From assembly GCA_964016885.1 (NCBI GenBank), contig OZ024742.1, positions 56,110,001 through 56,174,000 of the forward strand: 64,000 bases of DNA. Direction: 5' to 3'. A program made the position numbers and the translations under genes. Under the pieces are notes generated by a model. It did not search any database. It was given only the letters and a program-made list of their open reading frames with translations, and had not been told where the DNA came from. Shown here piece by piece: positions 8,391-60,089 of the stretch (position 1 is its first letter; the number at the start of each line of letters is the position of its first letter). Source of the DNA: Eledone cirrhosa (lineage: Eukaryota).

Positions 8391-8749
8391 AAGAGATATA
8401 TTAGATATGTCTCATATGAAATAATACAGCCAATTTTCCACGCAATACTTTTAGTTAGCACCCCGAACGCATAATTGGGAATATAATCACTTATTTCCTA
8501 ATGTTTGTTGAGTGAGTTGGAATTTGGCCGGAGTATCGCTAAAAAGCTTCGCCGATATTGTATTTATTTATATATACATATATACATACATATATATACA
8601 TATATACATACATACATACATATACATATATACATATATACATATATACATATATACATATATATATATACATATATATATATATATATATATACATATA
8701 TATATATATATATATAGACATATATATATTTTTATATATATATATATAT

Positions 8750-9526
8750 ATAAGTATGTACACGTACATACATATATGTATACAGACGTACAGTAGTATG
8801 TATATATATATACATACATGCACACATATATATATGTACGTATGGATTCACCGAACATTTATTATAATGCTCGGTGTGTTTGTAAACAAACATCCCGTAT
8901 TAAGCCGTAGTGTCCAGCAACCATCGTTGCTCGTTTCTTCAACACTGACAAAGGAACGCTGTACTAGTTTCGAGCTTATTAGCTATCGTCAGCAACGTAT
9001 ACCTTCCTGCCAGATTGTTGAACGTATATACTTACCTTATGCATATTAACATGTTTTCCTTATGCATATTAACATTTACCTTATGCATATTAACATTTTT
9101 TCCGTTTATCGTTTTCGGTGCACCCGGCCGATTAACCCATTCGATATGCAAATTGGGCTTCTCAGCTGTTAATATGCATAGGGTAAGTATATACGTTCAA
9201 CAATCTGGCAAGAAGGTATACGTTGCTGACGATAGCTAATAAGCTTGAAACTAGTACAGCGTTCCTTTGTCAGTGTTGAACAAACGAGCAACGATGGTTG
9301 CTGGACACTACGACTTAATACGGGATGTTTGTTTACAAACACACCGAGCATTATAATAAATGTTCGGTGAATCCATACATACATATATATATGTGTGCAT
9401 GTATGTATATATATATACATACTACTGTACGTCGGTATACATATATGAACGTACGTGTACATACTTATATTTAATTAACAGCCGTACTAAGAGTGGGAAA
9501 TGAAATTTCCTTTCATTTTTTCCGTT
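8750..9526. mobile_element. Family F non-coding HHR element, fold-back copy
   Basis: About 8750-9050 is the reverse complement of about 9168-9470. Same family at 33300-33940 and 53950-54780. Confidence 0.85.
9220..9262 (+). ncRNA. Minimal type I hammerhead ribozyme (family F)
   Basis: acgttg-CTGACGA-tAGCT aata AGCTt-GAAA-ctaGTA-cagcgt. Other copies at 8956-8998(-), 33532-33574(-), 54106-54148(+) and about 54529-54572(+, GAAA mutated to TAAA). Confidence 0.85.
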
Positions 9527-10458
9527 TATATATATATATATATTTATATATATATACACATATATATATATTTATATATATATATATATATATATATATA
9601 TATATATATATATATATATATATATATATATATATATATATATATATATATATATACATATATATATGTATATATACACATATATATATGTATATATACA
9701 CATATATATATACATATATATATATATATATATTTATATATATATACACATATTTATATATATATATATATATATATATATATATATATATATATATATA
9801 TATACATATATATATATATATTTATATATATATATATATAAAACATATTTATATATATATATAAACATATATATATTTTTATATATATATATGTATATAT
9901 ATATATATATGTATATATATATATATATTTTATCTTTTCACTTTTTTTGTGTTTTTGTTTTGATACGCACTCTTTTTCCTGCTACTAATTTGGCTCTCAC
10001 TCTTTTAAGTTGTGAATTAGACTGGTTATCTACGCACGTGGCTGACACATTTCAGCTCGCTACAATAGATGATCGCATTTAAAGTCCGTTAAAGGTTCTT
10101 GGCACTACCATTGTTACCATCGCTTTCCTCTAGCCATGGGTCTTGGAGGCATGAACCGAATGCTACCATTCTATTTTATATCAATATGAACTGATATTTC
10201 TAATAGCCATCTTTTTACCCCTTGATAATTTGTGTGTGCGACACGTTGGCTGAGGGCTTCTGACAGGAACTAAAAGATTGATTCTTTTTAGCTTCCCATC
10301 CCCAAGTAAAATTTGTAAATCAGTGGCTAGTTGAGAGATAGAGTCCTATTGGTTGCCAGTTGCTATTCGCTTTACCGTGTGAGTTGTCACAAACAGTTAT
10401 GACCGGCATGGGCCGGTGTTTGGATTCTGTCGATCGATTAGTTATCGATTAGGCGATA

Positions 10459-10568
10459 CCCGCTGATGAAGCCGCATAAGCCGGTTGTGCATTGTTGCAT
10501 AATATGTTGAGACAGACGGTGCGGTGTACCTTACTGCTGCATTAGTGCAGCAGAAACTCGAGTCCGGG
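10459..10568 (+). ncRNA. Type I hammerhead ribozyme with long stem II insertion (family G)
   Basis: cccg-CTGATGA-agccgca...tgcagca-GAAA-ctcgaGTC-cggg, within a non-coding insert at about 9930-10715 that ends in (TA)n. Confidence 0.75.
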
Positions 10569-11036
10569 AACCTTATAGACACTCGTTTTACGTGTGTTGT
10601 GTTGAGGCAAATGACTATGTGTATACTCTGATAATGTATCTTACATTGCCCATTGAGTGCGCTGAGATACAACCGGTACTGACATTGATAAATATGGTGG
10701 GCCCGTCAACCCTTATTATATACACGTATATATATTTATATATATATATATATATATATATATATATATATATATATATATATATATATATATATATACA
10801 CATATATATATATATATATATATATATATATATATATATATATATATATATATATATATATATATATATATATATATATATATATATATATATATATATA
10901 TATATATATATATATATACACATATATATATATATATATATATATATATATATATATATATATATATATATATATATATATATATATATATGTATATATA
11001 TATATATATATACACATATATATACACATATATATA

Positions 11037-56742: not shown

Positions 56743-59246
56743 ATGTTGAGCAAACAGGAACTCAGAATCTCACTTAAGTCCATACCTATCCCGGACAGAA
56801 AGACATACCTCAAACTATTAATACAGAGTGTCAACTCCATCATTCGAAGAATAAGATGGAAAGCGTACCACTTTGACCGTGCGGTTCCTGCTGACGCCGG
56901 AAGTACATCAAATAGATATGGATTTGCCACATGCAAGAACCCCCCACACAACATCCTGCTGGACCCTTTTGAGAAAGATATATTCAACTTCGTCAGGAGC
57001 ATTAAGTTCAAAAATCATTATAGACACAGGAATAACTTCCTCACTACATTAGCAACAACTATAAAAAAATTTATGGATAGCAACCTCTTACATGTTATGT
57101 CTGACAAAACCAAAAATCTATACACAATGACTCCTGAAATGTACCACTCTTTCCTTCTCAAAGAACTCAATAAAAACTATAAAAAAACTACACCCTCCAG
57201 TGTAAACGTACTTAACCGAAAAGCCCAGGCTTTGGTTAAGGACTTGCATTTGGATAGATTTACCCACCCTTATGTACCAACAACCCCAAGGTTCTCTCTC
57301 AAGGATCACAAGCCAAACTTTATAGAGAACCCATCCATTAGACTCATAAGCCCAACCACATCTGACCTGGGCCGCATCAGTAAGAACATCCTTGATAGGA
57401 TAATCCCTGGGCTACAAGATGATATCACCTACAAGTTGTGGTCCAACACCGGCCAATCATCAGATGGTTCTCCGATCTAAGGTCCAAGCAATCTATGAGG
57501 TTCATCCAATTTGATATAGACAGCTATTACGCGTCAATAACCCCGGAACTGCTCAACAAAGCACTAGCCCTAGTCACCACCAACTCGGACATAACCAATA
57601 ATGAGATTAACATCATACTCATGGCTAGGCAGACTATCATTGAATTCAACGGAGCACTCTGGACTAGAAAAGATAGAACAGACAACTTTGACATTACGAT
57701 GGGCTCAAGTGACTCCGCGCAAATCACCGATTTAGTTGGGATTTACCTATTACGTAACATCAGAGCCGAAATCCAACCCATGCAAGGCGGAATATACAGG
57801 GACGACGCCCTATTTGCGGTCCACAATTGCACTAATCGGGGAATCGATTTGCTAAAGAAACAATTTCATAGATTCTTCAAAAATAACGGTCTCTCTATCA
57901 CCATCGAGCTGAACCATAAAGTAGTAAACTTCCTAGACGTCACCCTTGATCTCAACAATAACCTTTATAACCCTTACCATAAACCAGGCGAAATACTCAC
58001 ATATATTAGCCCACACTCTAACCACCCACCGGCAGTCATCAGAGCAGTAATCAAATCTATCTCCTATAGGATCTCAATGCTATTAGCAAATCCAGAGATA
58101 TTTATAAACCACGCACTATATTATAATAAGGCTCTCTCTGAATGTGGTTATAAACAATCAATTTATTACATACCAAAATGCCATAACACAGCAACTCACC
58201 ATAATAAACTTAACACTAGAACTAGAAATACCTTAGCATATAGCCAGATTCGCCGGAATTTTAGCAGTAACAGCACCTATACAGGGAACTTTAATGGTGG
58301 CAGCGGCCTGCTCCCCGCTCCAAGTAGCAAACTAAGAATCAACCCTAGAATAGGAATGAGAAATGGGATGACAAATAACATATCCCCAGGTAATAATAAC
58401 CCTAGGAAGGCCCCTACCAACTCCACTAGAACCCCTAGAAGGAGTAGACCTCGAAATATCCCCTGGCTCAACCCACCATTCTCATCTAATCTAGCCACTA
58501 ATATCCCCAAACGCTTCTTCTCTATCCTATCCAAACACTTCCCCCCTAACCATAGATATTACAAACTCTTTAATAAAAATAACATTAAAATCTCATTCTC
58601 CACAACACCTAACCTAGCTAGCCACATCGCGTTCAGTAACCATCATAAGCTAAGACAGTATAACTCCCACACCGCGGTACCACCACCCCTATCAAATACA
58701 CCACGCCACTACACCAATAATTACTCTAGTAGCACACCTCCCCCATCTAATCTTTCTAGCAGGGACCAACCGCTTAGGTTAAACAACCCTACTCTCACTA
58801 ACCGCAGAAGCAACTGCAACTGCCGTTATCCCAACGCATGCCCATTAAATGGGCACTGCCTGACACCCAACATAGTCTATAGGTGAACCGTTGAGACTGC
58901 TTCGAATACCAGCTCTTATATCGGGTCTACCTCTAACCCTTTTAAGGTACGCTATAACGCGCACTCTTTTTCCTTCCGAGACCCTAGCAACAGATGTTCG
59001 ACATCGCTAGCGAGGCTCATTAAAAACCTTAAATTAAACAACGTTCAACACTCACTAAAATGGGATATCGCAGCTAGGGCCCAACCGTTCAATGGACGAA
59101 GAAAATCATGTGATCTCTGTGTTACGGAAGCATATTACATAACTCTATCACGACCTCCACCGATTAACGATAGAACGGAGGTAACCATTAGCTGTCAACA
59201 TCGAAGGGCTAATTCCTTCGCCATTAGAGTTTTTGACCCAACTTAG
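56743..59246 (+). pseudogene. PLE polyprotein: RT plus CxCx5C linker plus C-terminal GIY-YIG endonuclease, with one frameshift (about 57455) and one in-frame TGA (58884)
   Basis: IRRIRWKAYHF, SDKTKNLY, LKDHKPNF..IRLISP, FDIDSYY, ITMGSSDSAQ, GGIYRDD, NFLDVTLDL, CNCRYPNACPLNGHC, IVYR*TV..YIGSTS..FKVRY..CDLC..CQH. Final stop TAG at 59244-59246. Confidence 0.92.
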
Positions 59247-59611
59247 TCATGTAGCCCCATTTCTACTTGTAGCTAATAAGTTAAATTGCTATGAACAACT
59301 CGATAATTATAAGTTACCTCCCTTACATTGTCTCTCAATTAAAAAATGTAAATACTAGCACTTAACTATAAATACTCACAATCTCTAATCTCTCGAGAAG
59401 TTACTTCCCCTGAAACCACCCTCTAATTAGTAAGGTAAATATGCCCTTTGGCAGCCATCTTTTAGTCATAGGCAGATCTCACACAATGCAGCCTCGACAG
59501 ATGAATACTGCTTGATTATGGCTTACAGCTGATGCAACGAAGACACCATAGTAAAAACCAATATATGGAACATTATATTATGTAACATTACTTTAATTTA
59601 TATTCCTTTGA

Positions 59612-59732
59612 GTTCCGATGAGCCACTCTGTTTTTTTAAATATGTTAATTATTTTCAACTGAACCAGATCAATTATGATATATAGTCATCTGATCCAGAA
59701 ATATTATATGGAGTAGCGAAACAATTGTAAAC
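59612..59732 (+). ncRNA. Type I hammerhead ribozyme, CCGAUGA core, long stem II (family M)
   Basis: gtt-CCGATGA-GCcACTC...GAGTaGC-GAAA-caattGTA-aac. Mirror copy at 56173-56293(-). Confidence 0.7.
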
Positions 59733-60089
59733 GGACATTATTATTATTAATATTATTATTATTATTCTCTACATTCCTTACATCAAACTAAAATATGTTG
59801 ACAATCTTTTAATAATGTCTTCCTTGTGAAGTTTGTGGTCTTGTTTTGCTTAACTAATGAATATTTCCAGCTCTGCGCACCTAACTTCTGCATGAACCCA
59901 GCCACCTAGCTGCTTTCTACTGCATATTGCACATTGAGCACATGCCTTTACGCTTTGGCTTCTAACTAACTCACCAATCTCTCCTCTCATATCTCCTCCA
60001 CTATCTCCATCTCTCTCTTTAAGATTGGTTACTCTAGAACTGTGTATATATATATATATATATATATATATATATATTTATTTATTTAA

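Follow-up and report, generated by a model that had tools for sequence, protein, structure and literature searches.

Fixed internal TA patches at the ends of Penelope-like and retrozyme-type insertions in (TA)n tracts of Eledone cirrhosa

Repeat families in a 64,000-nt stretch of the Eledone cirrhosa genome (contig OZ024742.1, positions 56,110,001 to 56,174,000, forward strand; hereafter the window) pass into (TA)n at sequences that, elsewhere in the same families, continue into further element sequence. What sets these ends? A first-pass annotation of the window had proposed that the elements end at an internal TA motif fused with the target, and that cDNA is primed by annealing of nicked (TA)n to a UA patch downstream of the ribozyme. 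The answer bears on how Penelope-like elements (PLEs) join their cDNA to the target, and on why their insertions carry a one-sided tail and inverted arms.

Results

Elements that run into (TA)n in the window

Judged by its motifs and its target, family P is a PLE of the Hydra clade. The copy in the window has the following features:

55862-60048: whole family P insertion, an inverted short arm plus a direct long arm
55842-55865 and 60045-60076: (TA)n tracts flanking the insertion
55862-56507, minus strand: inverted arm, corresponding to 59864 to 59399 and ending at site S in (TA)n
55972-56160: separate high-copy repeat within the inverted arm
56503-60048, plus strand: direct arm, with 5' repeat, broken RT-endonuclease ORF, 3' UTR with a hammerhead-like motif, and repeat ending at site L
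56590-59245, plus strand: fragmented ORF, changing frame near 57423-57480 and with a stop at about 58884, that carries RWK, DKT, YRDD, a CxCX5C linker, a GIY-YIG-like domain without CCHH, and CxxC and CxH near its end
56697-56700, plus strand: internal read-through copy of site L (TGTG TATA CTTG); terminal copy at 60045-60048
56709-56720, plus strand: short motif CC-N1-3-RGYCGA, 9-14 nt past L; also at 54432 (family F) and 1581 (family B)
59615-59729, plus strand: hammerhead-like motif read by eye (CCGAUGA core variant, long stem II, GAAAC, GUA)
59861-59864, plus strand: site S (AATGA ATAT TTCC), 184 nt upstream of L; terminal copy at 55862-55865, minus strand

The passages of PMC8557442 that define the Hydra clade name RWK, DKT, CxCX5C, an absence of CCHH, and CxxC/CxH around conserved E and N. 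In frame 56590-57480 of family P, IRWK supplies the N-terminal RWK and DKTKN the change from DKG to DKT; the linker CNCRYPNAC, followed by VYR...YIG, places CxCX5C before a C-terminal GIY-YIG. No cysteine lies between VY and YIG, as expected where CCHH is absent, and CDLC and CQH correspond to CxxC and CxH. The single ORF, about 2.5 kb long and disrupted here, and the (TA)n flanks agree with the single short ORF and the target of the clade. A Pfam search of the PLE-like frames returned no PLE domain; one of 12 frames matched RVT_1, and that frame belongs to another element. An Rfam search of the ribozyme region of P gave no match and its fold was no better than that of shuffled sequences, the core variant CCGAUGA...GAAAC being recognized by eye only.

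The remaining families end in (TA)n in the same manner:

7122-8574, plus strand: family E, 700-nt tandem hammerhead unit, predicted cores at 7569 and 8269
7862-7875 and 8561-8574, plus strand: single end region of E, patch and terminal copy
54015-54783, plus strand: family F copy, 423-nt tandem unit, predicted minimal hammerhead core at 54112, ending at S
54355-54359 and 54416-54418, plus strand: family F sites S and L
8745-9529: another F insertion, inverted, its minus arm meeting (TA)n at S (about 8745) and its plus arm at L (9529)
1410-1940, plus strand: family B, unit of about 477 nt, predicted hammerhead core at 1782
1456-1462, plus strand: family B site S (terminal copy at about 1933-1939); minor L at about 1562-1571
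36023-37203: family A inverted insertion, S end on the minus and L end on the plus strand; internal S patch at 1250-1253
20095-20610: family C inverted insertion, L end on the minus and S end on the plus strand; predicted hammerhead core at 20511
42338-43058: family H inverted insertion, S end on the minus and L end on the plus strand; S patch at 42991-42994
21049-22266: family G inverted insertion, 318-nt tandem, two different ends

Tandem units of the retrozyme type make up families E, F and B and, by its repeat structure, G. E, F and B are non-coding, with periods of 700, 423 and about 477 nt and a predicted type I hammerhead motif in each unit. Family F matched Rfam Hammerhead_HH9 at E = 0.008, below the gathering score, and Rfam applied to the whole window gave, among the 150 of 183 matches listed, only microRNA-like and similar matches on TA repeats.

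All four junctions to which the annotation had pointed are genuine, and the same pattern recurs across the genome. In family P, GAACTGTGTATA is followed by CTTGAG internally (56689-56706) and by (TA)n terminally (60037-60076). CTTATAT of family F leads to TTAAG at 54353-54364 and to (TA)n at 54774-54800, and GATTATATAT of family B precedes GTTC at 1453-1466, the terminal TA-rich tract beginning at 1933. The family E pair also exists, TATTTATTTAT preceding TTAC at 7862 and the same stretch passing at 8561-8575 into an interrupted TA/CA tract, but its patch is a (TTTA)3 run and not a clean TA repeat.

Fixed ends genome-wide

The annotation had suggested aligning many copies per family and asking whether their endpoints fall on TA motifs. 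Genome-wide, with queries placed upstream of the ends, 173 of 198 copies from seven families ended at one or two fixed sites and then passed into (TA)n. Main sites accounted for 26/28 copies of P, 24/28 of F, 27/28 of E, 28/29 of B, 23/29 of A, 24/27 of C and 21/29 of H. Loci derived from the window were excluded and duplicates at the same place merged; counts for P, F, E and B were taken by hand from printed alignment ends, which for the short site of F replaced a script count contaminated with low-complexity matches. A genome query running up to the junction forces long ends; it was left out of the end counts, as was the tail query, and both were used for partner ends only. The internal TA end is thereby confirmed, but the description was incomplete: most families have two ends, one short (S) and one long (L). 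The exact S junction of family P occurs 1011 times in the genome. Two short contigs with another organism label cease to match at 56700 and 59864; being single contigs, they were not counted as evidence.

At 12 of the 13 family sites with a read-through copy, the element carries an alternating TA stretch of at least 3 nt that is in phase with the target (patch range 3-10 nt). With random breaks in the same units, 1.4 such sites are expected, rising to 2.8 when the more favourable phase may always be chosen, and 12 were reached in none of 10^6 simulated runs; a conservative test using the one weakest site per family still gave 7/8 (P = 1.3 x 10^-4). The exception is the second end of G, with a patch of only 2 nt, and the long ends of A and C, for which no read-through copy was found, lie outside this count. 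In family E, 8 of 27 junctions have only 1 nt in common with the target. Junction registers shift in steps that keep the TA phase in F and most of E. A G-to-A change adjoins site L of P in 16/53 junctions, and about 10/58 carry an extra GT instead; the former could reflect overwriting by the primer through a wobble pair, and slippage accounts for both. By informal reading, several minor ends also lie on TA patches (F at 54127 and 54279, H where TTTTC meets ATAT, P at 56918).

The target itself precedes the insertion. Among non-inverted E copies, the 5' flank is TA-rich in 22/27, compared with 175/1620 control windows, and the G insertion at 21049-22266 interrupts a (TA)n tract inside another repeat; the paralogues of that repeat at 4651-5368 and 11619-12365 are uninterrupted and provide a paralogous empty site. 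Because both the 5' flanks and this empty site carry (TA)n, we rejected the idea that the tails arise by de novo synthesis alone. A search of sequencing reads for an empty allele found none among the matches listed.

Inverted insertions pair S with L

In the inverted insertions, both outer ends are primed ends of the 3' type and the arms meet head to head, the arrangement that characterizes twin priming in L1. Among 99 places of family P chosen solely by an S junction, 59 paired S with L (58 by script, one by eye) and two paired S with S; the others comprised eight with S and another end, 19 single-ended and 11 unresolved. When pairs were anchored on L instead and both ends lay at a main site, 23 were S+L and one was L+L (Fisher P = 2 x 10^-17). 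The same combination prevailed among the listed pairs of F (11/12), C (10/10), H (5/5), A (3/4) and B (2/2). By contrast, single-ended copies of F, A, C and H used S and L about equally.

Plain divergence between the arms of an insertion was barely lower than that between insertions (2.7% against 3.1%; 32/52) and is uninformative, so a test on polymorphic sites was substituted. Minor variants at 105 such sites were present in both arms in 130 cases and in one arm in 61 (68%), compared with 14% on average and 36% at most in 2000 shuffles. Haplotypes were also linked in 17 insertions whose arms barely or do not overlap (rho 0.43 against 0.06, P = 0.005), making gene conversion or fold-back copying an unlikely origin of those arms; where the S arm extends far past the L arm, synthesis of one arm by folding back on the other was likewise rejected. 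What the common haplotype establishes is that both arms derive from one source locus or subfamily; it does not establish a single molecule.

Overlap between the arms is seen in 41 of 58 P insertions. A stall of the L arm at S, suggested by a small set, was ruled out in these 58, where the arm stops at S at 2.3 per kb and nearby at 1.7-2.3 per kb, that is, without excess. A single RNA would therefore require strand displacement or a second unit. In L1, the first cDNA halts at the second primer and the arms do not overlap; the P inversion thus resembles twin priming in action but is not of the L1 form.

What positions the ends

A UA patch is not sufficient as a determinant. Each reference unit contains 3-16 alternating runs of at least 4 nt, and longer patches stay unused in the same units; the runs of 10 and 12 nt in family F at 54270-54306 serve in only about 1/28 copies. 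Something besides the patch must therefore fix the site. Nor does the ribozyme serve as a ruler: as the annotation held, the ends are found 3' of hammerhead-like motifs, but the distance from the predicted cut, read by eye, varies from roughly 50 to 320 nt, and F arrays extend through up to seven ribozyme units. The motif CC-N1-3-RGYCGA past L is possibly a positioning signal, a candidate defined after the fact. Minimum free energy folds did not reveal a consistent structure at the patches.

Discussion

Any account has to accommodate the observed fixed ends, TA patches, pre-existing (TA)n, S+L rule and common haplotype of the arms. We consider it probable that the ends fall on TA patches because nicked (TA)n strands each pair with a UA patch on the element RNA, in a two-site form of twin priming. 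The GIY-YIG domain would nick both strands of the self-complementary (TA)n, and a signal close to the ends, perhaps the motif beyond L, would keep the RT, which may act as a dimer, in a constant position on a tandem or read-through RNA. The 3' end freed on one strand could then pair with one patch over 3-8 nt, G-U wobble allowed, and the end of the other target strand would take the second patch. Both cDNAs would extend toward the 5' end of the RNA, stop randomly and be joined head to head; priming by one strand alone would yield a plain 5'-truncated copy. The stretch from S to L would be the PLE 'tail', 184 nt in P and about 50-110 nt in the other families. The sequence data thus lend partial support to the annealing interpretation of the first-pass annotation: patch enrichment, a pre-existing target and variable junction registers all fit it, but there are usually two patches where it had one, and inverted insertions take one each.

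Parts of this scheme have precedents. The in vitro experiments on a Poseidon PLE described in PMC11167929 report RT starts at two internal sites that bound the tail, cutting and extension of both strands, and a predicted dimer; the same assay, the only one of a PLE, places priming at a site non-homologous to the cut DNA. L1, according to the priming data in PMC3649969, primes efficiently with 4 matched nt.

More tentatively, both events may be programmed, one complex using two UA patches of one RNA to capture one nicked (TA)n strand each on the same template. Such double priming would explain together the tail, its presence at one end, the head-to-head inversions and the targeting of microsatellites, and retrozyme arrays would be mobilised likewise. 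Rather less likely, pairing occurs but the arms come from two RNAs of the same active source locus, ordered strands using different sites. Overlap of the arms in 41/58 insertions without a stall at S suits two RNAs, and one dominant source locus at a time would likewise yield common variants. However, singles of F, A, C and H use either site similarly and pairs are S+L, for which mutual exclusion on one RNA is the simplest explanation. The two-RNA account differs from our preferred reading only in the number of RNA molecules.

Accounts without pairing seem improbable to us. Protein-RNA geometry might set the starts by itself, TA patches being scars of old targets or otherwise favoured as unpaired, flexible RNA. 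Homology-free internal initiation of the Poseidon PLE in vitro (in the assays of PMC11167929) agrees with this, as do the unused long patches and the match of only 1-2 nt at 8/27 E junctions and one G site; the long patches in tandem units (10 nt in G, 8 nt in H, 7 nt in B) could be captured target. Yet 12/13 sites have a patch in the phase of the target, including both sites of the autonomous element, and several minor ends of F, H and P fall on TA patches too, without a formal count. We give as little credence to an endonuclease that makes the ends by cutting a longer intermediate at TA motifs near its binding signal, with joining by microhomology. An enzyme that targets (TA)n would also cut TA motifs of the element, which accounts for patches and fixed sites, and the tail is credited to endonuclease-mediated resolution in PMC8557442. 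Against this, the limits of the Anolis PLE tail coincide with RT start sites in vitro (PMC11167929), and cutting alone leaves the different sites of the two arms (59 against 2) unexplained. Least credible by far is an origin after insertion, through microsatellite growth from TA motifs, trimming deletions or chance in AT-rich DNA. The window is 68% A+T and slippage is seen at junctions, but deletion would prefer the longest patches and scatter the ends, whereas 173/198 copies end at the same short patches, one or two per family; moreover, (TA)n also adjoins random 5' ends (22/27), and 1011 S junctions are identical.

Comparison with known systems

L1 twin priming, reportedly described by Ostertag and Kazazian in 2001, is similar in that both target strands prime, few paired bases suffice and a head-to-head inversion results. 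In L1, the first primer sits on the poly(A) tail, the position of the second varies and overlap between the arms is unusual; here, in contrast, both sites are internal and fixed, and overlapping arms are frequent. The endonuclease-free Athena/Coprina PLEs, for which Gladyshev and Arkhipova are said to have proposed an annealing model in 2007, also have a short target-like stretch thought to pair with a DNA 3' end. They differ in acting without an endonuclease at chromosome ends, with no two-ended internal insertions; the Fig. 1 legend of PMC8557442 notes their telomeric-repeat stretches.

Of the known systems, those nearest to P are the Hydra-clade PLEs, including Hydra-1_Obim, which, in the account of Craig et al. 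2021 (PMC8557442), share RWK, DKT, CxCX5C, C-terminal GIY-YIG without CCHH and insertion into (TA)n; they also carry a hammerhead, where P has a hammerhead-like motif read by eye. File S1 of that paper records for Hydra-1_Obim that four copies have a common termination site, and its text describes inverted 5'-truncated arms with the tail often at one end only. Published work already covers initiation at internal sites, a tail on one side only and the (TA)n target. In its relevant sections, PMC8557442 relates the choice of (TA)n to the protein linker and explains the tail by endonuclease resolution. These sections give a tail of 30-40 bp, compared with about 50-184 nt here, and mention neither patches resembling the target on both sides of the tail, nor an S+L rule, nor one origin for the two arms. 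Neither such patches nor PLE twin priming was found among the papers listed in a literature search that left out most subscription titles, older Penelope reviews included.

Poseidon PAc of Anolis (Frangieh et al. 2024, PMC11167929) likewise has two internal tail-bounding sites and cuts and extends both strands, and the experiments reported there indicate that ribozyme cleavage is not needed. Its starts are described as lying in an AC-rich stem loop inside the ORF, without homology to the cleaved DNA or any difference between strands, whereas the sites here lie in non-coding repeats, match the target and are used differently by the two strands. Families E, F and B resemble the metazoan non-LTR retrozymes, tandem non-coding type I hammerhead units of 300-700 nt that have been proposed to depend on PLEs (PMC7229834; bioRxiv 10.64898/2026.07.22.740005). 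The relevant passages of those papers argue from co-occurrence and pLTR similarity and leave the mechanism of mobilisation open; the units described here go further in sharing the marks that insertion of the PLE leaves (target, ends fixed at patches and S+L inversion), which connects tandem ribozyme units to PLE enzymes through mechanism instead of co-occurrence. The sites S and L, the nearby motif and a simple target provide exact, mutable coordinates. PLEs are the sister group of telomerase, and our findings point to template-primer pairing in the Hydra clade, a mode nearer to that of telomerase.

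Elements between the (TA)n tracts

The window has a G+C content of 32% and abundant (TA)n tracts, between which its self-comparison revealed about ten repeat families; the genome that holds it comprises 3.0 Gb in 1796 contigs.

P, 55862-60048: broken ORF; RWK, DKT and YRDD motifs, CxCX5C linker, GIY-YIG-like domain that lacks CCHH
E: non-coding tandem unit of 700 nt; type I hammerhead core on the strand ending in (TA)n
F: non-coding tandem unit of 423 nt; type I hammerhead core on the strand ending in (TA)n
B: non-coding tandem unit of ~477 nt; type I hammerhead core on the strand ending in (TA)n

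The P ORF carries the feature set by which Craig et al. (PMC8557442) describe the Hydra clade, in which almost all families insert into (TA)n, and its motifs fit a Hydra-clade Penelope-like element (PLE). By their sequences, E, F and B fit the description of non-LTR retrozymes; the F hammerhead is a weak match to Rfam HH9. Family C adjoins Hydra-like coding fragments in the window and is likely a PLE 3' end. More Hydra-like RT and GIY-YIG ORF fragments lie at 27215-30362, 44382-44876, 48187-48675 and 61836-63015; the window is shared by several distinct PLE families. An RT fragment of another, non-LTR kind (Pfam RVT_1) occupies 46463-47297.

Copies end at fixed TA patches

The first-pass annotation had proposed that P, E, F and B end at an internal TA motif fused with the target (TA)n, and self-comparison of the window recovered all four junctions as described; for E the internal TA-type end holds, but with a (TTTA)3 run as its patch and an interrupted TA/CA tract as its flank. 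Genome searches used query stretches lying upstream of the ends, so that the query did not force the ends; we took the best 30 of 346-2255 candidate loci per search, ranked by score, which biases the sample towards loci closely related to the window copies. After window-derived loci were dropped and same-place loci merged, 173 of 198 copies in seven families ended at a main site, confirming the observation across many copies. Every family except E has two sites, short (S) and long (L).

Fixed ends by family: copies at main sites (among the best 30 loci); S-L spacing; alternating TA runs at the sites in read-through copies, which continue past the site
P: 26/28 (11 S + 15 L); 184 nt; 4 + 4 nt
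F: 24/28 (10 S + 14 L; 2 elsewhere, 2 unresolved); 59 nt; 5 + 3 nt
E: 27/28; one end; 3 nt
B: 28/29 (26 S + 2 L); ~106 nt; 7 + 3 nt
A: 23/29; ~60 nt; 4 nt (short site)
C: 24/27; 90 nt; 3 nt (short site)
H: 21/29; 50 nt; 4 + 8 nt
G: TA runs 10 + 2 nt (window copies only)

Several of the other A, C and H ends are main-site ends with variant sequence or a short tract, and neither A nor C yielded a read-through copy of its long end. With the site, not the copy, as the unit of independence, 12 of 13 sites have a patch of at least 3 nt. Breaks placed at random in these units and fused to (TA)n give such a patch with a probability of 0.05-0.23 and never reached this count in 1e6 draws, also when the better phase was allowed; the weakest site per family alone gives p=1.3e-4.

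In a P insertion (L014/L060), an inverted arm passes site L and stops at a third TA-like patch in the ORF (56918), its partner being an L-ended arm. At L364, both arms of a P insertion read through site L and 110 nt of the ORF start and then jump to 59810; this short, internally deleted tandem unit may be an incipient retrozyme-like derivative.

The target precedes insertion

The (TA)n target is older than the insertions, because the 5' flank of E is TA-rich in 22 of 27 copies (versus 11% of control windows), and because a G insertion in the window interrupts the (TA)n of a host repeat, two paralogous copies of which keep it whole. A single tract often separates facing ends of different families (L030, L051, L142, L260), so the tracts serve as targets more than once. 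A very abundant repeat of ~185 nt (55972-56160; loci L002-L060 and L271-L370), with a read depth far exceeding that of P, is found repeatedly within P's (ATT)n run (59737-59779) and around 59590-59606; given its varying positions, it seems to target these AT-rich runs independently.

Inverted insertions pair one S end with one L end

The exact S-junction pattern of P has 1011 matches in the genome, and the first 100 listed, all on one contig (C1), represent 99 places. There, 58 insertions paired S with L by script and one more by eye (L285), whereas 2 were S+S; in 8 the partner ended elsewhere, 19 were single and 11 unresolved. Anchored on L, P pairs with both ends at main sites comprised 23 S+L versus 1 L+L in a hand count that omits pairs whose partner ends elsewhere or runs off the locus. 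Together, these counts cannot be reconciled with independent choice of sites (p=2e-17). In the other families, listed pairs were S+L in 11/12 (F), 10/10 (C), 5/5 (H), 3/4 (A) and 2/2 (B); one H locus (L263) apparently has two short-type ends. In E, with its one end region, inversion is almost never seen (an opposite arm in 1 of 28, L093-L120); set against the two-site families, it offers a natural control of whether a second patch goes with inversion. The inner arm-arm junctions (L271-L370) often show 1-8 nt of overlap in alignments, which may reflect microhomology joining or alignment overrun.

At 105 polymorphic sites, the two arms shared a minor variant in 130 cases, against 61 cases confined to one arm, a sharing of 68% versus 14% (maximum 36%) over 2000 re-pairings; rare variants were in both arms 28 times versus 230 times in one. 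In 17 insertions whose L arm consists of tail only (the stretch between S and L), tail and S-arm haplotypes were linked (rho 0.43, p=0.005; shuffled 0.06, sd 0.14; within-arm 0.61), which speaks against arm-arm conversion and fold-back copying. This argues that the arms have a common source; the data fit one RNA or two RNAs of one source locus.

Proposed priming at two patches and its rivals

We consider two-patch priming on nicked (TA)n most likely. An endonuclease would nick both strands, either of which would present the same primer; the enzyme, perhaps a dimer, would be placed by a signal in the RNA, each DNA 3' end would anneal to one of two UA patches of a single template, and extension of both primers would be followed by head-to-head joining of the truncated cDNAs. 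Use of two RNAs in order is the rival to the single template.

The rivals to pairing are endonuclease trimming at TA motifs and initiation without pairing. E ends are distributed over three TA steps spaced 4 nt, with target homology of just 1 nt in 8 of 27 junctions; F short ends read CTTATATATA, or retain CTTATATTTA ahead of the tract. Site L of P has A instead of G in 16 of 53 junctions, with G retained in 4/4 read-through places listed. This would fit a primer annealed across a G-U wobble; slippage explains it equally, because ~10 junctions gain GT. The first-pass proposal of priming by annealing is partly supported, by the TA patches and pre-existing (TA)n, and is extended here to two patches; against it, most patches are unused (3-16 TA runs of at least 4 nt per unit, the longest in F holding the end in ~1/28 copies among the best 30 loci). 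The ends lie ~50-320 nt from the predicted ribozyme cut. This varying distance, with F insertions spanning up to 7 units, is consistent with the report that ribozyme cleavage is dispensable in vitro for an Anolis PLE (PMC11167929).

CC-N1-3-RGYCGA lies 9-14 nt beyond L in the unrelated families P, F and B (56709, 54432, 1581) and is absent in E and at the H long end; with 11 places in the window and a definition made after the fact, it is no more than a lead. P and B carry a similar core again, 18-24 nt beyond it.

Comparison with known elements

(TA)n targeting by Hydra PLEs is known, as are inverted arms and a one-ended tail, and Hydra-1_Obim copies have a fixed termination site (PMC8557442 and its File S1); in the Anolis PLE, reverse transcription starts internally at two sites that delimit the tail (PMC11167929), and retrozymes have been linked to PLEs (PMC7229834; bioRxiv 10.64898/2026.07.22.740005), as far as the available text of these sources goes. 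The literature searched yielded no description of target-like patches at both start sites, of an S+L rule backed by counts or of arm haplotype linkage; Figs S1 and S2 of PMC11167929 and older reviews may bear on this. These families offer a direct test of an open question on PLE integration. P inversions differ from L1 twin priming, in which the arms usually do not overlap: the L arm passes S without stalling, with overlap between the two arms in 41 of 58 cases.
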